Shown: positions 1 through 24,511 of the stretch, in pieces | How the letters are laid out: the number at the start of each line of letters is the position of its first letter | Numbering within the stretch: position 1 is the first letter of the stretch | Source of the DNA: a virus | Lineage: Duplodnaviria > Caudoviricetes | Direction: 5' to 3' (one strand) | IMG/VR virus record: IMGVR_UViG_3300042297_000410 | Span: 1 to 26,284 of that record | DNA length: 26,284 bases | Notes under the pieces: model-generated | Told to the model about the DNA's origin: nothing | Database searches by the model: none | The model's input: the letters and a program-made list of their open reading frames with translations, nothing else | Translations under genes and position numbers: made by a program

Positions 1-473
1 GAACCGCTACAGCTGGTGAGGTGCTGACCGCTGCGTTTTGGAATACGAATGTACGGGATAACTCGAACGAGCTCGCACCATTCTTCTCTGCGTGGACAAG
101 TTACACGCCCAGTTGGACAAACTTGACCGTTGGGAATGCAGTCGTCACAGCAAAATATTTCCAAATCGGTAAAACTGTTTTTTATTTTGGCTCTATCGTT
201 TGGGGATCAACTACCAGCGCCACATCAAGCACGACTCTAGTTTCCCTGCCTGTCACTGCGATAAGTTCCAATTTTGATCTTGCAAATGGAAGCCTCTTTA
301 TCGGAGACAGTGGCACTCGCGGATATGTTGGAGTGTGTGCACCACAAACAACCACCACGATGATTTTCCATCACAGCGAATCGGGAAACTTTGGAGACGT
401 AAACGCCACCGCTCCATTCACATTTGGAGTAGCCGATTTCCTAAAATGGTCGCTAATCTACCAAGCAGCCTAA
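1..473 (+). CDS. Tail fibre/receptor-binding protein, expressed-orientation cassette A (5'-truncated by window edge)
   Basis: Frame is open from the window start (..TATAGEVLTAAFWNTNVRDN..), resembling the N-terminal 'AGExxTAAxxNxxVRDN' motif of actinophage minor tail proteins. Beta-rich, S/T-rich body (WTSYTPSWTNLTVGNAVVTAKYFQIGKTV). Sits just before the lysis genes. Confidence 0.75.
   Translation, partial: TATAGEVLTAAFWNTNVRDNSNELAPFFSAWTSYTPSWTNLTVGNAVVTAKYFQIGKTVFYFGSIVWGSTTSATSSTTLVSLPVTAISSNFDLANGSLFIGDSGTRGYVGVCAPQTTTTMIFHHSESGNFGDVNATAPFTFGVADFLKWSLIYQAA
13..69 (+). repeat. Left arm of 57-bp inverted repeat (IR-L)
   Basis: ctggtgaggtgctgaccgctgcgttttggaatacgaatgtacgggataactcgaacg equals the reverse complement of 927-983 except position 26 (G vs T, synonymous Leu). 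Confidence 0.97.
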
Positions 474-515
474 CCCGTAGCCTCGTGCTACTTGTAGCGT
501 TGTGTGGGGTTAGGT
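468..515. terminator. Imperfect hairpin between the convergent cassettes, possible bidirectional terminator
   Basis: cctaaccc (469-476) pairs with gggttagg (507-514); inner gtagc/gctac/gtagc alternatives. No clear U-tract. Confidence 0.4.
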
Positions 516-531
516 GAGTGGTGTGTGCTGA

Positions 532-983
532 TTAGATGGTGGAGCCGGCGTCGATGACTGTGATGAACATTTGAGCCGTTTCTGGGTTGGCTGTTACCGT
601 TCCCGTCCCTGTTCGAAACATTCTCAATTTATATGTGATAGATCCGGCTCCTGGAACGTCGTAGTACATTGCGAATAGGGAAACAGATACGGCATTTGTG
701 GTGCTGATGTCTCCGGCTCGTTGCTTGAAATTACCGCCAGCATAAATGTCCATGTTTATGTAATCGCCTGCTACTGACGAAATTGCTGTGCTGTACCCTG
801 TTACTAGATAACGTCTATTAGCTTCGGCTGTAATTGTTAGGGTCATGTCGGTCAGATCAACGATTGATGTAATTGATCCCTGCGAAGTTGTACGAGTTGC
901 TACGGCTATTACGCCTCGCGACAGTGCGTTCGAGTTATCCCGTACATTCGTATTCCAAAACGCAGCGGTAAGCACCTCACCAG
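532..983 (-). CDS. Silent alternative tail-fibre cassette B (start-less, inverted)
   Basis: Begins with the same GEVLTAAFWNTNVRDNSN peptide as cassette A, then an unrelated ~130-aa beta-rich domain. The upstream frame hits TAA at 1021-1023 with no ATG; only the GTG within the repeat could start it. Confidence 0.75.
927..983 (-). repeat. Right arm of 57-bp inverted repeat (IR-R)
   Basis: Reverse complement of 13-69, 56/57 identical. Confidence 0.97.
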
Positions 984-1021
984 TAGGCGTCGAGGGGAAG
1001 CGTCTAGGCCGTTGCGTCGGT

Positions 1022-1027
1022 TATCAT
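1022..1027 (+). promoter_or_regulatory. -10 box of probable leaderless promoter for the lysis module
   Basis: TATCAT followed by 7 nt then ATG at 1035, with no Shine-Dalgarno; typical actinobacterial leaderless geometry. Confidence 0.5.
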
Positions 1028-1034
1028 TCACCGT

Positions 1035-1235: not shown

Positions 1236-1412
1236 ATGTCGAACATTAGTCCCAAGGTTACGGCCGCCGCCGTCGCCGCCGCACTCGTCACCATCATCGT
1301 ATGGGGCGCCAGCCTCGCCGGCCTCGACATCCCAGAAGTCGTCCAGGGCGCGCTCATCACGATCATCGTCGCCGCCGCTGGGTACCTCGTCACTGATCCG
1401 CGCCGCTCGTGA
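1236..1412 (+). CDS. Holin (58 aa, two TM segments)
   Basis: Not in ORF track. GAGGAGG RBS; MSNISPKVTAAAVAAALVTIIVWGASLAGLDIPEVVQGALITIIVAAAGYLVTDPRRS; GTGA overlap with endolysin. Confidence 0.8.
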   Translation: MSNISPKVTAAAVAAALVTIIVWGASLAGLDIPEVVQGALITIIVAAAGYLVTDPRRS

Positions 1413-2119
1413 CTCATCGTCAGGCAGCCAAGATCGCCCTCCGCGATTACGCGAAGCAGGCAGGCATCCCAATCCCGAACGGCTTCAACACTTTGGACAC
1501 GTACGGCGCGTCGGCTCGCGAGTTGTGTAAGCGCGTACAGCGCAAGAATCGGATAAAGCAGACCGGTGATCTCACGCCGAAGACGATCCTCGTCATTGGC
1601 AAGTATCTGCCCGGCCAGCTGGGTGAGCGTGCAGCGTGGGCGATGCGCATCATCGAAGGGCCGCTCGAGGTGTGGGGCAATAATCGTGGCCCGTACGTTG
1701 AGGAGATCCAGAAACTCGGCACGCAACTCTCGCCGGGCGCGTGGCGGTGGTGCGCCGCCACTACTAGCTGGGCGTATCGGTGCGCAGGTTGGAAGAGTTG
1801 GGCCGCGTTCTGCAAAGGCATGAACGAAGCCTACGTTCCCGATTGGGTAGCCGCTGCTCAGGCGAAGCGTTACGGGATGAGCATCATCGGTTGGCGCTCG
1901 AGCAAGACTGGGGATGCGATCACGTACCAGTTCGATGATGATCGCGAACAAGACCACATCGGCCTTCTCATCGCCCGGCCGAATCTCGCGACTGGCGTGT
2001 GCCGATCGATCGAAGGCAACACGTCAAGCGGCGAGTACGGATCCCAGTCTGACGGGTCTGGTTTGTGGACGCGGACGCGGAGTGCGAAGCCGCCGCAGAT
2101 CCTGATCCGCATCACGTAG
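1409..2119 (+). CDS. Endolysin: N-terminal peptidoglycan-binding-like domain + CHAP amidase domain
   Basis: CHAP motifs WCAA, DHIG, IEGNT; N-terminal 'YGASARELCKRVQRKNRIKQTGDLTPKT' resembles PG_binding_1. Confidence 0.85.
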   Translation: MTHRQAAKIALRDYAKQAGIPIPNGFNTLDTYGASARELCKRVQRKNRIKQTGDLTPKTILVIGKYLPGQLGERAAWAMRIIEGPLEVWGNNRGPYVEEIQKLGTQLSPGAWRWCAATTSWAYRCAGWKSWAAFCKGMNEAYVPDWVAAAQAKRYGMSIIGWRSSKTGDAITYQFDDDREQDHIGLLIARPNLATGVCRSIEGNTSSGEYGSQSDGSGLWTRTRSAKPPQILIRIT

Positions 2120-5225: not shown

Positions 5226-5672
5226 ATGGCAAACATCATTAGTGCAGACGAGATCCTTGCAGGAGGCGGAGGCTTGTACCTCAACAGTGAGGACAAGGCG
5301 AGCCTGCACACCGAGCAGCGCGCGTTCTACATCACGAGCGCCGTCGCCGAACAGGAGGGACAGTACGGCGTCCAGACCGTGTTCACGATCAAGGAGAAAG
5401 GCAAGGACGAGGCGCGCCTAGCATTCCAGGCCAGCGCAAGTCGGATCGAACAGGCGAAGAAGATCAGCGTCGCCGTTGCTAAGGGCGCCGACGCCATCGG
5501 CCCGTTCTACCTCGGCCGGTGGGAATCCAACGGCCGCTCTGGTTGGCAGCTCACGAACGCGCCGAGCACACCGAGCGTCATCCCGGCCCTCTCCTCGAGC
5601 GCCAACGCGACAACGCCGGCTGCGCCCGTGTCAAGCGTCGCCCCGACCACCGACGACGACATCCCGTTCTGA
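5226..5672 (+). CDS. Putative single-stranded DNA-binding protein
   Basis: GGAGG RBS; low-complexity P/S/T/A linker ending in the acidic SSB tip DDDIPF. Confidence 0.6.
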   Translation: MANIISADEILAGGGGLYLNSEDKASLHTEQRAFYITSAVAEQEGQYGVQTVFTIKEKGKDEARLAFQASASRIEQAKKISVAVAKGADAIGPFYLGRWESNGRSGWQLTNAPSTPSVIPALSSSANATTPAAPVSSVAPTTDDDIPF

Positions 5673-6190
5673 TGACGAGCATCGTCCCATTCGTTCCACA
5701 GGTAAGTGTCTCGCAACTCCTCGGATTCGCGGAGCGTGGCGAAGTCCTCACCGAGGATGGCGAAGTCGTCAAGGTCGACGACGCTGCGAATGATGACCTA
5801 GTCGCGTGGAGTCTCGTTGCCACGTACTTGCGGGATCTTGCCAGGATGATTAGCACTAGCGTCGAGCCCGAGCTAGCGCACCGCATCCATTACATCGGTG
5901 GCCCAATCACGGCGACACACGGGACGGCTAGGGAGTCGATTAGTCGGGCGAGTGTGAGCGGTATTGCTGCTCAGCGGATTCGCGACATCCTCGAGGAGTG
6001 CGCCGCCGATGGCGTCATCCCGTGGGACGCCGTCGATAACATCGCACCACTCGTCCCACACGTCACCCCGATGAAGGTTGCGAACTACGTTGAGACGTGC
6101 CCCGCGGGACTAGCCGACATGCTTGAGAAGCATTTGCCGGAGAAGCGGCGGACCATCAAGGTCGAACGCAACGCGATCGACGCGGCATGA
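5672..6190 (+). CDS. Hypothetical protein (replication/recombination block)
   Basis: TGATG overlap with previous gene, ATGA overlap with next. Confidence 0.65.
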   Translation: MTSIVPFVPQVSVSQLLGFAERGEVLTEDGEVVKVDDAANDDLVAWSLVATYLRDLARMISTSVEPELAHRIHYIGGPITATHGTARESISRASVSGIAAQRIRDILEECAADGVIPWDAVDNIAPLVPHVTPMKVANYVETCPAGLADMLEKHLPEKRRTIKVERNAIDAA

Positions 6191-6747
6191 ACACGGAGGA
6201 GGCTCAGTATCGAGGCATCATCATTGCTATCGATACGAGCCTCCTCCGGACCGCGTACGCCATCACACATAATGCTGACCTCGTCGCATTCAAGACGATC
6301 CATACGAAGGATGGCCTTGAGGATCGCCGCGACGCGTGGAAGACTATTCGCGACGAAGCACGCCGCGTCGAACGCATCACCCATGATCAGGTCGGCGCCA
6401 TCGTCATCGAGGATGCATGGCTAGGCCCTAATCGGCAAGGCAGCCTGAACCACGCCAGATGCATCGGCCACGCCGAAGCGTTCGCCATACAGAGCTTCCC
6501 GTACGCACTCATCGAACGCGTCATGCCGCAATCGTATAGAGCCCTGCTATGTCTCCCCCGCAAGGGCAAAGAACCACTCATGTCGTATGCGCGGACGATT
6601 CTAGACATGGCGCACTCTGATCGGGGATACACGACTCCTAGCGGTTGGAACGAACCACTCGACCAGGACTCGGCCGACGCCATTTGTATTGCATACGCAG
6701 CTCAGAAAGCGTATGCTCGCGCCCTGCAGGACAATCCACCCGCATAG
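6187..6747 (+). CDS. RuvC-like Holliday junction resolvase
   Basis: IIAIDTS, IVIED and DSADAICIA catalytic motifs. Confidence 0.8.
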   Translation: MNTEEAQYRGIIIAIDTSLLRTAYAITHNADLVAFKTIHTKDGLEDRRDAWKTIRDEARRVERITHDQVGAIVIEDAWLGPNRQGSLNHARCIGHAEAFAIQSFPYALIERVMPQSYRALLCLPRKGKEPLMSYARTILDMAHSDRGYTTPSGWNEPLDQDSADAICIAYAAQKAYARALQDNPPA

Positions 6748-16290: not shown

Positions 16291-18492
16291 GTGCCGTATT
16301 TCATTACTGACCAGAGTGCTGAGTGTGACGGGTGGGCGACGATCAAAGATGACGGCGAAGTGATTGGTTGTCACGAGTCGAAGGATGCTGCTATCGCGCA
16401 GATGGTCGCCGTGTCTCTGGCTGAGGGACTCGAGCCGGGTGGCGAGCGTAACCTTGATGGCGCGCCGGCGATCATCGTCGACATTGACGGGACGCTGATC
16501 TCGTTCGAGGGCGAGCCGATCCGTAGCGTCGTCGACTTCGTGGACGAGTATGAGGGGACTGTCTTGATCGTGACGGCTCGTGTCGAGACTGATCGGGCGG
16601 CGACGATTGCCGAACTCGAAGCGGCCGATGTTGATTGGGACGAGCTCTATATGAAGCCGACGGCGGATGCTGATTCGCTGATGTTCAAGTCTGAGACGGT
16701 GAAGGATCTCCTCGACGTGTGGAATCTCGAGCTAGCCATTGAGAATGATGCCGATGTGCGTGCTGAGTATGCGCGCCTCGGAATCACGGCCGTCGTGCCG
16801 AGTGCTGTGCTCGAGACTGGTGTGCGCGCGTTGCCAGATAATTATCGGCCCGCGCTAGCGGCGGATGTGCCGGAGGGTCGCGCGTGCGGCAATTGTGTTT
16901 TTTATGACGAGTCGAACGTCGAGGGTGACAAGGCGTGGTGCGAGCGGTGGGACGAGTATGTCGACGGCGCGTATTATTGCAACGCGTGGCGCGCTGACGA
17001 GGAGGAGCGCGCGCCGGCGCCGCCGGAGGATCAGATTACCGGGTCGGATGAGAATGCGCCTGGTTCGGCTAGTGGTGCTGGTGGGGATGTCGAGCTGAGT
17101 GAGGCGACGACGACGGCGCTCCGTAACAAGGCCGCGGAGCATAACGAGGCGATGGATGCGGATGATCGTCCCGCGTATACGCGGACGACGCTGGGCCAGT
17201 TGTCGGCGGTGTATCGTCGCGGGTCGGGCGCGTACTCGACGAGTCATCGTCCGGGTGTGTCTCGAGCGGCGTGGTCTATGGCTCGCGTCAACGCGTTCCT
17301 ATATCTCTTGCGGCGTGGCCGTCCCCAGAATGCTGCGTATGTTTCGGATAATGATCTCCTGCCGGAGGATCATCCGCGGTCGACGCGTGGAGATCGAGCC
17401 GTCGACTTGACGCTGCCCGAGTATATCCGCGAGGCGGCGATGCGTGGTGTCGAATATTACGAGGCGGGTCGTGCTGGTGACGGCGTTGTGGATCGTACGA
17501 TTCGCGAGGCGCGTCTAATGAGTCGTGGCGAAGTGTCGGAGGATAAGGTCATTCGTGTTAGTGCGTGGGCTGCTCGGCACCTGGTCGATCTTGACGCGCC
17601 GCAGAATAATGATCCTGATGATGATGGGTTCCCCGGCGCTGGTGCTGTCGCGTTCTACTTGTGGGGCATTGATCCGCTTGACCCGTCGCCGGCGATTCGC
17701 TGGTTCGATGAGAAGGCCGACCAGATCCGCGAGGAGGAGCGTAGCCTAGACACGGCCGTTGTCGGTGCTACCCTTTCTACTATGGATAACGGAGTCGAGA
17801 CGCGCCGCATTACTGTCAACGAGTTCGAGTTGCGCGATGCAGCCGAGGGTAATGGCATGACGTTCGTTGGGTATGGCGCTGTCTTCAATTCGGATAGTGA
17901 GCCGCTGCCGTTTACGGAGCGGATCGCTCCTGGCGCGTTCTCGCGTTCGCTGCGTTCGCGGAATGAGATCAAGATGTTCGTGAATCACGACACGACGCAG
18001 GTCCTCGCGTCGAAGCGTGCCGGAACGCTGCGTCTGTCCGAGGACACGCATGGCCTCCGCGTTGAGGCTGACCTGCCTGATACGACCGCTGGTCGCGACA
18101 TGGCATTCCTAATCAAGCGTGGCGATGTCGCCGACATGTCGTTCGGCTTCAGCGTTCCGCGTGGTGGGGATTCGTGGAGTGATGATGGTGCTACGCGCGA
18201 ATTGCGCGAGGTCCGTCTGCACGAGGTGAGTATCGTGACGGGGTTCCCGGCGTACGCCGCGACGACTGCTTCGGTGCGTAGCCTGGACGGACTCGTCGAG
18301 GCTACCGGCCTCGAGGCTGACAAGCTGAACGCGGCGATCACGGCCCTGGAGAATGGTGACGAACTAGACGAGGCGCACGCTAGTATCCTCGACGCGGCCA
18401 TTGGCCGGCTGAAGATGCAGCGTGATGATGTGGCGGCTTCGTTGTCGCTGAAGCAGAAGCAGCTAGACGTGCTTCTCGCCCGCGTCTCGTAA
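16291..18492 (+). CDS. Multi-domain HK97-type prohead protease
   Basis: C-terminal FVGYGAVFNS..ERIAPGAF..NHD..MSFGF..LHEVSIVTGFPAY. N-terminal ~500 aa carries a HAD-like domain (VDIDGTL), a 4-Cys domain and two further domains. Confidence 0.9.
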   Translation: MPYFITDQSAECDGWATIKDDGEVIGCHESKDAAIAQMVAVSLAEGLEPGGERNLDGAPAIIVDIDGTLISFEGEPIRSVVDFVDEYEGTVLIVTARVETDRAATIAELEAADVDWDELYMKPTADADSLMFKSETVKDLLDVWNLELAIENDADVRAEYARLGITAVVPSAVLETGVRALPDNYRPALAADVPEGRACGNCVFYDESNVEGDKAWCERWDEYVDGAYYCNAWRADEEERAPAPPEDQITGSDENAPGSASGAGGDVELSEATTTALRNKAAEHNEAMDADDRPAYTRTTLGQLSAVYRRGSGAYSTSHRPGVSRAAWSMARVNAFLYLLRRGRPQNAAYVSDNDLLPEDHPRSTRGDRAVDLTLPEYIREAAMRGVEYYEAGRAGDGVVDRTIREARLMSRGEVSEDKVIRVSAWAARHLVDLDAPQNNDPDDDGFPGAGAVAFYLWGIDPLDPSPAIRWFDEKADQIREEERSLDTAVVGATLSTMDNGVETRRITVNEFELRDAAEGNGMTFVGYGAVFNSDSEPLPFTERIAPGAFSRSLRSRNEIKMFVNHDTTQVLASKRAGTLRLSEDTHGLRVEADLPDTTAGRDMAFLIKRGDVADMSFGFSVPRGGDSWSDDGATRELREVRLHEVSIVTGFPAYAATTASVRSLDGLVEATGLEADKLNAAITALENGDELDEAHASILDAAIGRLKMQRDDVAASLSLKQKQLDVLLARVS

Positions 18493-19815: not shown

Positions 19816-19860
19816 CTAAGGGCCGTCGATCCCGTTCGGGATTGGCGGCCTTTAGTCTTT
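19816..19860 (+). terminator. Intrinsic terminator-like hairpin after capsid gene
   Basis: ctaagggccgtcgatcccg / cgggattggcggcctttag stem with GU pairs, followed by tcttt. Confidence 0.7.
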
Positions 19861-19873
19861 GGGAGGGAACCCG

Positions 19874-21112
19874 TTGGCGAATCGAGCAGACCGTAGACAG
19901 GCGGCGAAGACGCTGGCGAAGACGCCAGGCGTCACACCGCAGCGCGTAACGTGGTGTAGCAATAGTCCATTCGCTGCTACGGGCTATGGCGTGCAGACGG
20001 CGCAAGTCGTGGAGCGACTAGCGCGTGATGGGCACGAGGTCGCCGTGGCGTGCAACTTCGGTTTGCAGGGTAACTCGACGGAGTGGAATGGAATCAAGCT
20101 CTACCCGACAGGCGTAACGCCATACTCGGACGATATTCTCCGCGCGCATTCGCAGCATTGGGAGTCGATGTCTAGTCTGCCTGGACTCGTGATGATCCTC
20201 TTTGATGTGTGGGCGTTGACGAATCCGAACATCGCGAAGATCCCGAAGATCGCTGCGTGGGCGCCGATCGATCACAAGCCATCGCCACCCGACGTGACTA
20301 AGTGGTTGGCGCGGCCGAACGTGATGCCGATTGCGATGAGTAAGTTCGGTGCGGACATGATGGAACTTGACGGCCTCGAGCATCTCTACGTTCCGCACGC
20401 TGTCGACAAAGTCTTCAAGCCTACGGAATCGTTTGCTGACGCGGCGGGTAAGCGGGTCCGTGGTCGCGACCTGATGGGTATCGATGATTCCGACGCGTTC
20501 GTCGTGATGATGAACTCGGCGAATAAGGGTAGGACGCCGCCGCGTAAGTGCTGGGGCGAGAATCTCCTAGCGTTCGGTGTCTTCGCTGCGGATCATCCCG
20601 ACGCGATCTTGTATCTCCACACGGATCAGAGTGCTGGCCTCGGCGGTGTGGATCTTCTCCAACTGATTCGCGCGTGCGGTATCAAGCCCGAACAGATCCG
20701 CTTCGTCGATCAGTACCTCTACCGCATGAACCTCCCACAGCACGCCCTAGCGGCGCTCTACACGGACGCGGACGTTCTCCTAGCCACCAGTGCAGGCGAA
20801 GGCTTCGGCGTGCCTGTAATCGAAGCGCAGGCATGCGGAACGCCCGTCATCTGTTCCGACTGGACAGCACAAACAGAATTATGCGGAGATGGGTGGCTCG
20901 TCGACGGCCAACCGTTGTGGGACCCGAACCAGCATTCGTGGTTCTTCACGCCGAACGTGTCGCAGATCGTGTCAAGTCTGCGCGAAGCGTACGAGCGGAA
21001 GCGTGGCAAGAGTGAGAAGGCCATCAAGTTTGCTGCGGCTTACGATGCGGACGTCGTGTATGAGGAGCATTGGCGGCCGGCGATGGAACGTCTCGCGACG
21101 TGGCGCCCGTGA
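19874..21112 (+). CDS. Glycosyltransferase, GT-B fold (GT4-like)
   Basis: TGYGVQ, VPHAVD, EGFGVPVIEAQACGTPVI (EX7E); GGAGG RBS before TTG 19874. Confidence 0.9.
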   Translation: MANRADRRQAAKTLAKTPGVTPQRVTWCSNSPFAATGYGVQTAQVVERLARDGHEVAVACNFGLQGNSTEWNGIKLYPTGVTPYSDDILRAHSQHWESMSSLPGLVMILFDVWALTNPNIAKIPKIAAWAPIDHKPSPPDVTKWLARPNVMPIAMSKFGADMMELDGLEHLYVPHAVDKVFKPTESFADAAGKRVRGRDLMGIDDSDAFVVMMNSANKGRTPPRKCWGENLLAFGVFAADHPDAILYLHTDQSAGLGGVDLLQLIRACGIKPEQIRFVDQYLYRMNLPQHALAALYTDADVLLATSAGEGFGVPVIEAQACGTPVICSDWTAQTELCGDGWLVDGQPLWDPNQHSWFFTPNVSQIVSSLREAYERKRGKSEKAIKFAAAYDADVVYEEHWRPAMERLATWRP

Positions 21113-21783
21113 AGCCGACGGTAATCATTCCCGTCCTCGGCGCGCACGACCTGCTCGAGCGGTGTATCCGTAGCCTGGACGGTTACGCCAGCCGGATCAT
21201 CATCATTGACAATGGTGACGCGCTCGACCGGGACGCCGTGACTGAGTGGATTAGTGGCGCGGATGTGTATGTATGGCGGATGCCGACGGCGCTCAGCGTC
21301 GCCGCGTCGTGGAACCTCGGCATCAAGGCGACACCATTCGAGGATGGTTGGCTCCTGCTGAACTCGGATGCGTGGTTCCCGGACGGGTTGTCTGCCGAGT
21401 ATGCGGACTCGTTGTCGTTTGATCGGATCGTGCTGGCGGGGGCGCCGCCGTGGTGTTGCGCGTGGATCGGGTCCGAAGTGGTTCGCCGTGTCGGCCTGTT
21501 CTGTGAACGCTTCCACCCCGCCTACTTCGAGGATAACGATTATGAGCGGCGCGCTCATATCGTCGGCATGGAGATCCTGCATTCGGATGCGAATGTGATG
21601 CATGAGAACTCGTCGACGCTAGCTCGGAACCCGCACTACGCTACGCAGAACGCGAAGACGTTCGCCACCAATCAAGCGTTCTATGATTATCGGTGGGCGA
21701 ACCTGAGCGCGGACGGCTTGCCACAGTCGCACGAGTGGAGCCTTACGACGCGCGTTCGGAATGCGTGGGAGATCATCGAATGA
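21109..21783 (+). CDS. Glycosyltransferase family 2
   Basis: VIIPV, IIDNG, SWNLG, LLNSD, YFEDNDY. Confidence 0.9.
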   Translation: MKPTVIIPVLGAHDLLERCIRSLDGYASRIIIIDNGDALDRDAVTEWISGADVYVWRMPTALSVAASWNLGIKATPFEDGWLLLNSDAWFPDGLSAEYADSLSFDRIVLAGAPPWCCAWIGSEVVRRVGLFCERFHPAYFEDNDYERRAHIVGMEILHSDANVMHENSSTLARNPHYATQNAKTFATNQAFYDYRWANLSADGLPQSHEWSLTTRVRNAWEIIE

Positions 21784-22664
21784 TCCAGACGCTTCTGGTC
21801 GGGTACGGGTATTGGGGTCGCATCCTTGCCGAGAATCTGACGCAGCATCCGACGTTCTTCCTTGCCGGCGTGCAGGACGCGAATCAGAGTGTGATCCTCG
21901 ACGCGCGCGCCAATAATCTGCACGCCTATTCGTCGCTCGAGGATGCGATGCAGGCGACGCATCCCCAGCTAGTCGTCATCGCCGCGCCGATTGGTTCGAT
22001 GGAAGTGCCAGCGATGCGCGCCCTGCAAGGTTACGCGCACGTGATGATGGCGAAGCCTGGCGTCGATTCGCTTGCCGCGTTTGATCGCGTCCTCCGCGTC
22101 GCCGATTACGCGCAGCGCAGCGTCACCGTCGATTATACGATGCTGATGCACGCGACGTGGAATACGATCCTGCACGAGCAGCACCGCCTCGGAGGCGTCG
22201 AGAAGTTCCATAGCGTCCGCTCCGCGATTGGTAATCGGACGGGCGCACCAATCGTCCTCGACATGCTCGTCCATGACCTGTCTCTGCTAGTTAGTCTGAA
22301 TCCGGATCGCGAGTGGCTTCTCGAGTATGCGCGCGTGGGTGAGACGGAAGTGGTTGCGCGGTTCGTGTCGGGCGAGTGTGAGGCGATCCTAGAGGCGAGC
22401 ACGACGAGTACCGAGCAGGAACGCAGCGTATATCTTGCCGGCGCCGGGTTGCATCTGGTGTGGGATCAGCTCGCGGACGTTGTCGAATCGAACTCGGCCG
22501 AGATCATGCAGGCGTGGTATGACGATGAGAAGATTCCGTGCACGCCCGTGCAGCGAAGACTGAACAATATGGTCAATGTGGTCAATCATCGCGGCGACGA
22601 TAATCGCGTCGTAGCGCGCGGCGTGCTCGTGATGGTTGAGCAAATCTTGGAGGCGCAGCGATGA
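21780..22664 (+). CDS. Gfo/Idh/MocA-family NAD-dependent sugar oxidoreductase
   Basis: VGYGYWG Rossmann motif, AKP (variant of EKP), DMLVHD. Confidence 0.8.
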   Translation: MIQTLLVGYGYWGRILAENLTQHPTFFLAGVQDANQSVILDARANNLHAYSSLEDAMQATHPQLVVIAAPIGSMEVPAMRALQGYAHVMMAKPGVDSLAAFDRVLRVADYAQRSVTVDYTMLMHATWNTILHEQHRLGGVEKFHSVRSAIGNRTGAPIVLDMLVHDLSLLVSLNPDREWLLEYARVGETEVVARFVSGECEAILEASTTSTEQERSVYLAGAGLHLVWDQLADVVESNSAEIMQAWYDDEKIPCTPVQRRLNNMVNVVNHRGDDNRVVARGVLVMVEQILEAQR

Positions 22665-23317
22665 TTATTGACGAGACGGATGGTCCGGTACTGATTGGCG
22701 CTAATTGTGAGATCTTCGAGACGGCGATCCTGACCGGTCCCTTATCGATTGGTGATGACGTGTATATCGGGCCGTACGCTGTCGTGGGTGGGCCGGCGCA
22801 GCATCGCGGCTCGTACCCTTGCAGTCTTGACTCTCCCCGCCGAGCCGTCGGCGTATGTATCAAAAATCGTGCATGTGTACGAGAATTCGTGCAGATCCAT
22901 CAGGGCCTGACGTGCGAAACAATGATCGGTGAGGATGTCCTGCTAATGGCGGGCGCGCATATCGCGCACGACTCGCATATCGGTGATGGTGCAACTCTAG
23001 GCAGTTTCTCTATTCTTGGAGGCTTCACGATCATCGATGATGCGGCGACGTTTGGGCAAGGCGTCGTCACGCACCCGTGGACGATCATTGGGGAGCGCGC
23101 GATGGTTGGCTTCAACTCGAGCGTCGTGAAGGATGTCATGCCGTTCGCGAAGGTTGCGGGCGCGCCGGCTCGTCTCCTCGGATCGAATCAGCATCGTGAC
23201 GAGTCACTACCCGCCGGGTATGACGCGACGCTGCTAGGTGGCGACGTGTGGGAACGGTGGGGCGAATTATTGGAGAAGCGCGAGGAGATGCGGAAGCGTT
23301 GGAGTCTCGTTGCCTAA
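22661..23317 (+). CDS. LpxA-like left-handed beta-helix acyltransferase
   Basis: Hexapeptide repeats; GGPAQH, VREFVQIHQG, MAGAHIAHD, SVVKDV, GAPAR. Confidence 0.85.
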   Translation: MIIDETDGPVLIGANCEIFETAILTGPLSIGDDVYIGPYAVVGGPAQHRGSYPCSLDSPRRAVGVCIKNRACVREFVQIHQGLTCETMIGEDVLLMAGAHIAHDSHIGDGATLGSFSILGGFTIIDDAATFGQGVVTHPWTIIGERAMVGFNSSVVKDVMPFAKVAGAPARLLGSNQHRDESLPAGYDATLLGGDVWERWGELLEKREEMRKRWSLVA

Positions 23318-23978
23318 GCCGCTCCTGATAGTTATGAATCCTCGCCGCATCCCCGAATGCGTCGACGCTATCGCCGACCTCAGCATCGATAAGGTCTGGG
23401 CAAAGAATTATACGGAGCGCGAGCTAGTGGGCGTCATCGCGGGGATTATTGCCGAGTCTGATTATGATCCGATTGGGATCATCTCGGATGATGCGCGTCC
23501 CGACCAGGCCGCGCTCGATCTTGTCCTTGACGCTTACAAGCCGGGCGCTGTCTATACGGGTTACTGCAATCTGAGTGAGCAGGATTATCGGGTGAACCTC
23601 AGCACGCAGCCGCTAACGATCCAGTTCGAGGCGACGATGGATTGCTACACGTTCATCACGAAGGACGACCTCGAGGCGCAGCCCGAGGCGCTGATCCGTT
23701 CATGGTTCGCCGGCCACTGCTTCACGTTCATGAGTCGCGACTTGTGGGAAGCGTTCCCGTTCGGCATTGTGGATTCTGGCAATGGCAACCAGTCTGACTA
23801 TCACTTGTGTTGCAGGTTGCAGGAGGCGGGCGTAGATATTTGGGCGGTGCGTGGCGCGTTCGTTGAGCATGTGAAGCGATACTCGAATACGGGTGATGAT
23901 ACGGCGGGTCGTGCCCTTCTCGTTGGCGTCGAGGCTGCGGAGGTCGTGTGGGACCTAATCCCCGAATCGTTGTCGTAA
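23310..23978 (+). CDS. Divergent GT-A-fold glycosyltransferase (putative)
   Basis: IISDD, QSDYHLC, VEH in GT-A-like order; cluster context. Confidence 0.55.
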   Translation: MPKPLLIVMNPRRIPECVDAIADLSIDKVWAKNYTERELVGVIAGIIAESDYDPIGIISDDARPDQAALDLVLDAYKPGAVYTGYCNLSEQDYRVNLSTQPLTIQFEATMDCYTFITKDDLEAQPEALIRSWFAGHCFTFMSRDLWEAFPFGIVDSGNGNQSDYHLCCRLQEAGVDIWAVRGAFVEHVKRYSNTGDDTAGRALLVGVEAAEVVWDLIPESLS

Positions 23979-24511
23979 CGCCTAGCCTGCCGGAGCGTGC
24001 GGACTTGCGAGCCGAGTGCGTGGCTAGTGTCGCGGCGCAGACGCTCAAACCCGTCGCGCATATCGTCATGGTTGATTATGAGCGGGCTGGTCCCGCAGCG
24101 ATGCTGAATAGGATGCTGCCAGCGTGCATCGCTGCGGACGCCGAGTGGGTTGCCCAACTCGCCGACGATGACCTAGCCGATCCTAACCATCTCGAACTAC
24201 TCGCAGCGCACTGCGCCGATGCGGACATCGTCTATTCGTGGTGTCGCGTTGAGGGCCGGTCGTTCAATCCGAACCGCGAGTTCGACGAGGTCGCGCTGCG
24301 CGCATCTAACTTCATTCCGGCGACGACGATGATTCGCACGAGCTTGTGTGAGGATCTCGGCTGGCGAATCGACTCCACGCACGGCTTCGAGGATTACGAT
24401 TTTTGGCTTCGCGCGCTGGACGCTGGCGCTCGATTCGTGTGCGTTCCCGAGGTGTCGTGGACGTACCGCTTCCACGGTGCCAATCTATCTACCGGAGGCG
24501 GTAAGATCTAA
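23948..24511 (+). CDS. Glycosyltransferase family 2
   Basis: VVTPS, SVAAQT, LADDD, EDYDFWLR, YRFH. Confidence 0.9.
   Translation: MGPNPRIVVVTPSLPERADLRAECVASVAAQTLKPVAHIVMVDYERAGPAAMLNRMLPACIAADAEWVAQLADDDLADPNHLELLAAHCADADIVYSWCRVEGRSFNPNREFDEVALRASNFIPATTMIRTSLCEDLGWRIDSTHGFEDYDFWLRALDAGARFVCVPEVSWTYRFHGANLSTGGGKI

Follow-up and report, generated by a model that had tools for sequence, protein, structure and literature searches.

In the Mu G segment (inverted by Gin) and the P1 C segment (inverted by Cin), inverted repeats lie within the tail-fibre gene, and a constant N-terminus is joined to one of two C-termini. According to the available parts of the accounts concerned, the segment is 3 kb long, adjoins a serine invertase gene and is inverted at 34-bp sites (PMC4406740, PMC3575834). 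The Rin shufflon of Bifidobacterium prophages, as the accessible part of its description has it, uses an adjacent tyrosine invertase and an 11-bp rix site before each of several cassettes, with a constant part of 168 aa, in a temperate phage (PMC6109161). The same source, to the extent available, describes in the bifidophages 689b-1 and Bb423phi2 a second, putative inversion in a structural gene with no recombinase adjacent. It has an 8-bp site and spans about 500 bp, concerns genes of unknown function in temperate phages and comes from one comparison (PMC6109161). Lastly, invertible regions of about 30 kb with repeats of 400–700 bp are described from Anabaena cyanophages, with two isomers and, in the accessible part of the report, no assigned recombinase (bioRxiv 10.64898/2026.02.14.705889).

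The locus considered here lies at the left end of a 26,284-nucleotide stretch (the window), which is the whole of a tailed-phage record (IMG/VR IMGVR_UViG_3300042297_000410), with a CheckV completeness of 82%. The locus and the genes that bear on it are these:

1..12, plus strand: final codons (of MAWTTPGTATA) of the constant 5' coding stretch; the records L006, L007, L008 and L002 extend leftwards from here
13..69, plus strand: left arm of the inverted repeat, encoding residues 12-29 (GEVLTAAFWNTNVRDNSN) and including a helix predicted at 17-29 (from sequence and model)
70..473, plus strand: cassette A, a variable domain of about 133 aa in the expressed position, predicted to be a beta-barrel like a fibre or receptor-binding head
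469..514, unstranded: hairpin spacer, CCTAACCC...GGGTTAGG, the left arm of which contains the stop of A (from fold z and sequence)
532..926, minus strand: cassette B, a variable domain of about 130 aa in the start-less position, predicted to be a TNF/C1q-like trimeric jelly roll
927..983, minus strand: right arm, with B in frame and, upstream, no ATG, -10-like site or Shine–Dalgarno (SD) word (from sequence)
984..1034, plus strand: right flank, homologous in L002, L024 and L026, containing the stop upstream of B, and TATCAT (1022-1027) 7 nt 5' of the next ATG
1236-1412, plus strand: holin (PHROGs 9284 / 21825, a holin/endolysin pair)
1409-2119, plus strand: endolysin (same PHROGs pair)
6187..6747, plus strand: RuvC-like Holliday junction resolvase (PHROGs 1770, E 2.4e-7; 159, E 1e-5)

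As in Mu G and P1 C, the inverted repeats are in frame and lead into alternative C-termini. However, the segment is only 971 bp long, the repeat lacks dyad symmetry and the constant part is about 29 aa; neither the window nor the tail region of its relatives yields an invertase, the neighbours being a 439-aa tail protein (L024, L026, L002) and the lysis genes; and the cassette pairs differ between strains. With Rin, as far as the available description goes, the locus shares an actinobacterial host group (likely for the present phage), heads similar to those of lactococcal receptor-binding proteins, and a sequence, CCTAACCC, at the 3' end of the receptor-binding protein gene that resembles rix. 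Unlike Rin, it comprises a pair of cassettes with a long repeat that is itself coding, it gives no match to an integrase or invertase, and the rix site TTCCCTAACCC does not precede each cassette, CCTAACCC being found at the 3' spacer only and absent from the arms. The inversion in 689b-1 and Bb423phi2, as partly documented, is the nearest precedent, from which the locus differs by its 34-67-bp in-frame repeat, its predicted receptor-binding folds and its recurrence with several cassettes. The Anabaena phages are likewise freshwater phages without an assigned recombinase, but their segment is very large and no gene fusion is described in the part of the report at hand. By analogy with the accessible descriptions, the locus would work like Mu G/Gin, P1 C/Cin and Rin (PMC4406740, PMC3575834, PMC6109161, PMC13596623, PMC9881135), yet is a member of none of them, since it has no adjacent invertase and no defined crossover site. 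In a literature search covering mainly papers free of subscription, no account turned up of this locus, nor of any lytic actinophage whose receptor switch lacks a recombinase.

The repeat is far above chance: its arms are 57 nt long and 98% complementary, with an expectation of about 1e-22, and the other inverted repeats of the window are at most 37 nt long, none of those listed being more than 84% complementary. The sole mismatch (26 versus 970) is CTG/CTT, both Leu, so that the 57-bp repeat with one synonymous mismatch reported in the sequence-only reading is reproduced in its coordinates and in the change itself. Both arms translate in frame to GEVLTAAFWNTNVRDNSN, leading into A (frame 3..473, plus strand, open at its 5' end) and B (frame 532..1020, minus strand), respectively; A is indeed in frame with a gene entering from the left, as had been claimed, the start being supplied by L006 and L008. 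(In the L008 assembly, at 281-667, A is frameshifted to 126 aa, P0146, which is either an error or an allele.) The two convergent domains of about 130 aa that had been called unrelated measure 133 and 130 aa and have no significant BLASTP match (best E 1.6). The G+C content is 47% in the cassettes and 60% in the remainder of the window.

What kind of proteins do the cassettes encode? Structure prediction, proposed earlier as a check, gave a fibre-head barrel for A and a jelly roll for B. The model of A (pLDDT 90.0) aligns in VIA-align with the C-terminal domain of the Dettilon tailspike (6f7k; Z 10.6, rmsd 3.0, 119 aligned), Noumeavirus NMV_189 (7qrr; Z 9.7), the bIL170 head (2fsd; Z 7.4) and reovirus sigmaC (Z 7.4); Foldseek with A returned nothing at E <= 0.001, and tblastn found no match to it among 50,697 phage records. 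The full-length B form P0136 (pLDDT 91.7) aligns with the lectin PLTL (9ib6; Z 14.6, rmsd 2.0, 119 aligned), Bdellovibrio Bd2734 (8okw; Z 11.4) and a fibre domain of cyanophage A-1(L) (8ke9; Z 11.1), with a Foldseek E of 9.7e-6. A and B are therefore predicted to have different folds, both of the trimeric viral fibre-head or lectin type. A shared fold is by itself not proof of function, and it is the position at the end of the tail module, indicated by the adjoining holin and endolysin, together with the predicted folds, that makes receptor binding the likely function; judging from the models, the product is likely to be a receptor-binding protein. A B-like domain also occurs in a single-cassette gene (L027, P0005), and P0148-P0151 are large proteins with tandem B domains, up to eight copies.

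The window encodes a holin, an endolysin, a primase-polymerase, terminase, portal, HK97-type capsid, glycosyltransferases and a major tail protein. L024 and L002 bridge its right end to its left end across a gap of about 4.6 kb containing a chaperone-like gene, a 193-aa gene, the tape measure and the 439-aa tail protein, which gives a composite genome of about 30.9 kb and the order major tail, chaperone-like, tape measure, 439-aa protein, locus gene, lysis. The top capsid match is Pontimonas phage phiPsal1 (45%), a phage of 31,069 bp that infects an actinobacterium and arranges its head and tail genes in a similar order; on these grounds the present phage is likely to have an actinobacterial host too, in keeping with the earlier label of probable actinophage. 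Neither the motif nor the 439-aa tail protein had a locus in the genome_contigs set, which therefore gives no prophage or host assignment; the phage is apparently lytic. Between the capsid and neck genes (19859-24511) lie glycosyltransferases, a Gfo/Idh/MocA oxidoreductase and a hexapeptide acyltransferase, a block possibly serving virion glycosylation; phiPsal1 has glycosyltransferases at the corresponding position. The 733-aa prohead protease (16291-18492) has HAD-like and DUF5824 domains fused in front.

Outside the 971-bp segment there are one promoter-like site, one ATG and 11 codons. The ATG, with a TAGAAT -10-like site 6 nt upstream, lies just beyond the left edge of the window, and the constant N-terminus consists of MAWTTPGTATA and 18 repeat-encoded residues, that is, about 29 of 160-163 residues in L006 and L008, so that the constant part is as short as had been supposed. 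TANNNT has a background frequency of 0.55% per position, yet lies exactly 6 nt upstream of the ATG in 26 of 32 expressed copies, which are relatives and so non-independent (the reading register of L001 and L005 was shifted by one codon). This arrangement presumably resembles a leaderless promoter; a sigma-70 promoter scan, which requires a -35 box, gave no match. Because the promoter-like site lies outside the repeat, only one cassette can use it. The N-terminal peptide itself would dock the protein on the tail and trimerise it.

We suggest that the promoter-like site, the ATG and the 11 codons would stay in place outside the invertible segment, and that this segment would invert slowly when its two in-frame copies of the N-terminal coding sequence undergo general homologous recombination, each orientation giving one head, A or B. 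Inversion would be carried out by the general recombination system of the host or by template switching, perhaps with the help of the RuvC-like phage protein, and the availability of hosts would select the orientation. The arrangement is likely to go back to the capture, behind the hairpin spacer and in inverted orientation, of a cassette from the shared pool of the family. That the segment inverts, by whatever route, is quite probable, and flipping would be ongoing within populations; that the locus is a two-state receptor-binding switch driven by low-rate general homologous recombination is the reading that we favour on balance. A flip would exchange about 80% of the modelled protein and is hence likely to alter the bacteria that can be infected.

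Evidence that cassettes change places comes from protein records, which are consistent with both states, and from relatives. P0136 (160 aa, from a 1842-bp contig) is the start joined to the window's B, identical from residue 12 with 0 differences: it has the sequence of the predicted flipped product, on another contig. P0001 and P0138 are allelic full-length B forms, and these three proteins are the B-expressed relatives that the sequence-only reading, which held B to be fusable in frame to the same N-terminus, had called for. B is represented by three full-length proteins on 3 contigs and six start-less ones on 22, and A by full-length records on 19 contigs and start-less ones on 7, one of these being the cut end of the window (P0141); such counts include repeated samples and are non-independent, and start-less calls also come from contig ends. 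Several start-less proteins are exact suffixes of full-length ones (P0132 of P0136, P0139 of P0001, P0144 of P0012, P0296 of P0306 and P0299 of P0304), and P0139 and P0001 have the rare YASGN allele in common. The B-first proteins P0136, P0001 and P0138 may stem from single-cassette B phages or from assembler mis-joins across the repeat. In addition, P0312, P0313, P0048, P0052, P0087, P0121-P0123, P0129 and P0131 are called from V/MLTAAFWN, P0312 with LTPS upstream as at the right arm of the window; from their sequences, this group is likely to represent more start-less cassettes.

The two-cassette layout recurs in L024 and L026, two of the 29 informative IMG/VR records in a broad motif scan (a number that leaves out six records with <1.1 kb downstream, and L077). 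A relaxed-motif match to the layout, L047, was discarded as chance. DNA identity to the window is about 92% for L024 (lysis region) and about 70% for L026; their four cassettes are different ones, intact and 26-52% identical to each other and to A, and every start-less cassette found is intact and in frame with the repeat. In the hub-protein tree the two records fall in different clades, each beside single-cassette kin. The cluster of the expressed L024 cassette has 14 members, ten full-length and four start-less, all four starting at VLTAAFWN, compared with none of 15 members in eight single-cassette control clusters, where one of the 15 is a 79-aa internal call; for the start-less L024 cassette, none of four cluster members has a MAWTTPG start. 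The spacer lies behind the expressed gene in the window, L002 and L012, but behind the start-less gene in L024 and L026. L026 also has its far arm, together with four downstream bases (GGGTTAGGCGAG, as in L002), turned towards the expressed gene, and that gene bears a remnant of the start of the next gene. The simplest reading of the reversed spacer and outside flank is that the whole segment has been inverted in these phages.

The arms point the same way as regards exchange of alleles, which are present on both sides: the CTT allele is in the left arm in four of four runs, and the CTG allele is in the right arm in L006. Arm-to-arm differences amount to 0 of 42 sites in L024 and 3 of 42 in L026, which differs from any other locus at 5 or more; in L008, which speaks against the switch, the arms differ at 3 of 42 sites, exceeding their distance from other loci. 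Conversion of A's junction from B was considered and set aside, since DNSNE is common within the A family.

Could B instead be kept in reserve, unexpressed, and be brought to the expression site by gene conversion or through recombination during co-infection, the B-first proteins being recombinants or single-cassette donors? The N-terminal motif, which is common to 88 of 131 homologues and precedes many unrelated heads, is on sequence grounds the exchange boundary of the whole family. Other partners of the spacer are seen by eye in the lake runs (in X9 and X16 it is preceded by a C-type gene, and in X2 and X5 another convergent gene, ending LSVTWIGQTS, adjoins it), and L002, L007 and L018, which are close kin, carry a single cassette. 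Nevertheless, the spacer of L026 and L024 is reversed along with its outside flank, which requires that the middle of the segment has been turned round; the inverted in-frame geometry is seen in two clades of the hub-protein tree, and two crossovers at both arms would give the same product as inversion. A reservoir is the less likely explanation, and inversion remains the preferred reading.

By which enzyme would the segment invert? Serine recombinases (PF00239) were matched in none of 10 records and tyrosine recombinases (PF00589) likewise in none of 10, with positive controls in 13 of 14 and 14 of 14, respectively, which upholds the earlier statement that neither is recognisable in the 26 kb. 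Large serine recombinases (PF07508) and IS110 (PF01548) were matched in none of five records, including a 93% complete relative, and none of these four families was matched in G000-G002. The option that the gene sits in the missing tail region is now unlikely, because that region in L024 and L026 holds tail-type genes only and no recombinase. RecT, ERF, Rad52 and Sak4 were also matched in none of five records, so that no known annealing protein comes from the phage. The atlas searches gave no name for the ORFs 5226-5672 and 5669-6190, so an unrecognised recombination protein is conceivable; the former encodes a 148-aa protein without a family match, whose DDDIPF C-terminus we take to resemble the tail of a single-strand DNA-binding protein. 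Judging from its family matches, the RuvC-like protein (6187..6747) may possibly aid general recombination.

The crossover sites of Gin and Cin have dyad symmetry around a short core. In the present repeat the best dyad is 7 of 12, matched by 256 of 300 shuffles; depending on the locus it measures 57 bp, 67 bp or, around a perfect 34-bp core, 94 bp; its right arm ends in one outer border in the window and L024 and in another in L026, and synonymous sites vary freely among loci. General homology therefore fits better than a fixed site. Against it, besides the lack of a known annealing protein from the phage, lengths of 34-57 bp are short for RecA. General recombination is a recognised route of inversion between inverted repeats, according to the accessible part of one source (PMC4272514).

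These observations also bear on the suggestion that a site-specific recombinase of the host inverts the segment in trans, a mechanism proposed for the second bifidophage inversion. The CCTAACCC arms of the spacer match rix TTCCCTAACCC at 8 of 11 bases, and CCTAACCC matches 6 bases of the reverse-complemented CAGGGTTA, the site of the recombinase-less bifidophages, as given in the available part of the source (PMC6109161); moreover, the window and L024 have one and the same outer border at the right arm. However, CCTAACCC encloses only the 46-bp spacer and not the cassettes, and a repeat without a dyad, variable in length and at synonymous sites and with a differing border in L026, is poorly suited to such an enzyme, which makes this suggestion improbable. 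Inversion by general homologous recombination remains the better fit.

Alternatively, B might be a static passenger, or a separate second tail protein starting at GTG 975 or an internal ATG. Gene callers do use internal B starts on 22 contigs, all three readable DNA records of the A/B locus (the window, L006 and L008) have A in front, and leaderless starts are common in Actinomycetota. On the other hand, an in-frame TAA (1021-1023) lies 13 codons upstream of the repeat with no ATG between, and at the possible starts, GTG 975 and the internal ATGs (846, 753 and others), there is no -10-like hexamer 5-8 nt upstream and no SD-like word; B looks as silent as the sequence-only reading had it. The product would also miss the 11-13 conserved first residues, the start-less cassettes are all intact and in frame with the repeat, and identical cassettes are on record full-length. 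A static or independent B is accordingly very improbable.

Assembly is the last point. A metagenome scan for the locus found three loci only, and L006 and L008 show the same layout and orientation as the window, with A in front. Of 24 runs, all in the form of Logan contigs, seven lake runs were compared, contig depth not being taken as a ratio. The segment between the arms is a single contig in five of the seven: identical to the window in X1, X2 and X12 (0 other letters), and with 0 and 1 other letters relative to L006 in X3 and X5; it forms two abutting contigs in X9 and lies in pieces in X16. The short-word contigs of these runs break inside the repeat, do not link flank to cassette across it and so speak neither for nor against either orientation, and searches with exact repeat and B-junction patterns found none in viral_contigs, a set possibly missing very near records. 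The layout is not a misassembly, a possibility that the earlier reading had itself raised, since the same arrangement is found in L006 and L008 and the between-arm segment lies on single contigs. It might still be argued that mixed strains with a common N-terminal motif were assembled into a false layout, or at any rate into false B-first records, and one might cite for this the mixed populations at the locus and the start of the window only 12 nt ahead of the repeat. The argument is hardly credible, given that in five of seven runs a single contig carries the convergent block of A, spacer and B along with part of each arm, that the right flank is joined to the arm in the runs examined and that L024 and L026 have arms and cassettes of their own. 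Loose ends at L006:101, 164, 579, 582 and 625 and at window positions 459, 514 and 934 lead to further cassette variants. By eye, X5 has another inverted arm (GDVLTAA allele) adjoining the right flank, and in the lake runs genes ending LSVTWIGQTS and VYGYRKS lie beyond the spacer and a C-type gene before it.

The spacer has a fold z of -2.4 in the window and -3.9 in L012, and CCTAACCC is confined to it: 7 of 33 sequences have it there, and the 244,694 nt searched contain no other copy. The spacer is present in both readable two-cassette relatives and in only 2 of 27 other informative records, and is likely to be both a terminator and a 3' exchange boundary. The spacer at 469-514 of the window equals L002:6451-6496, from a siphovirus-like relative, and L012:3799-3844, from an unrelated phage type. 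TATCAT in the right flank is, from its sequence, likely to be the promoter of the lysis genes. Relative to the empty L002 site, the extra cassette is flanked by microhomologies, TAGG(C/T)G at about 511-518 and 984-989 of the window, with a counterpart (GCGAG) at 5495-5500 and 5986-5990 in L026; such short direct microhomologies may mark the capture or loss of a cassette. Cassettes at L001:5237-5290, L005:1177-1230 and L026:5466-5500 carry an MSDAEI-like remnant of the start of the next gene, and the remnant is found even in phages of another genome type, where a portal gene comes next. Heads thus seem to be passed from one phage to another, unrelated one together with conserved 5' and 3' boundary sequences.

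New here are a long in-frame coding repeat, a near-complete swap between folds, an open pool of cassettes and an apparently lytic lifestyle. In Gin, Cin/Min, Rin and the BV01-like shufflon the recombinase is adjacent and the phages are temperate, with one putative exception in the accessible part of the literature (PMC6109161), and searches for recombinases near repeats would overlook loci such as this one. A broader view, which we put forward tentatively as a real but lesser possibility, is that apparently lytic freshwater actinophages make host-range switches without a dedicated enzyme, the sequence for the docking peptide, at which the whole family exchanges its heads, doubling as an inversion site whenever a second head is captured backwards. 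The result would be a reloadable, open-ended two-slot switch that can alter the fold of the receptor-binding domain at a stroke, that at least two clades have evolved or retained, and that is maybe a precursor of invertase-driven shufflons. The locus offers a direct test of how module exchange at conserved boundaries can turn into phase variation, and matched A and B heads on one scaffold would be a probe for the surface glycans of the host. If the segment does flip, a 31-kb phage without an integrase would hedge between lake hosts, with about 80% of its receptor-binding protein exchanged for a part of unrelated fold.
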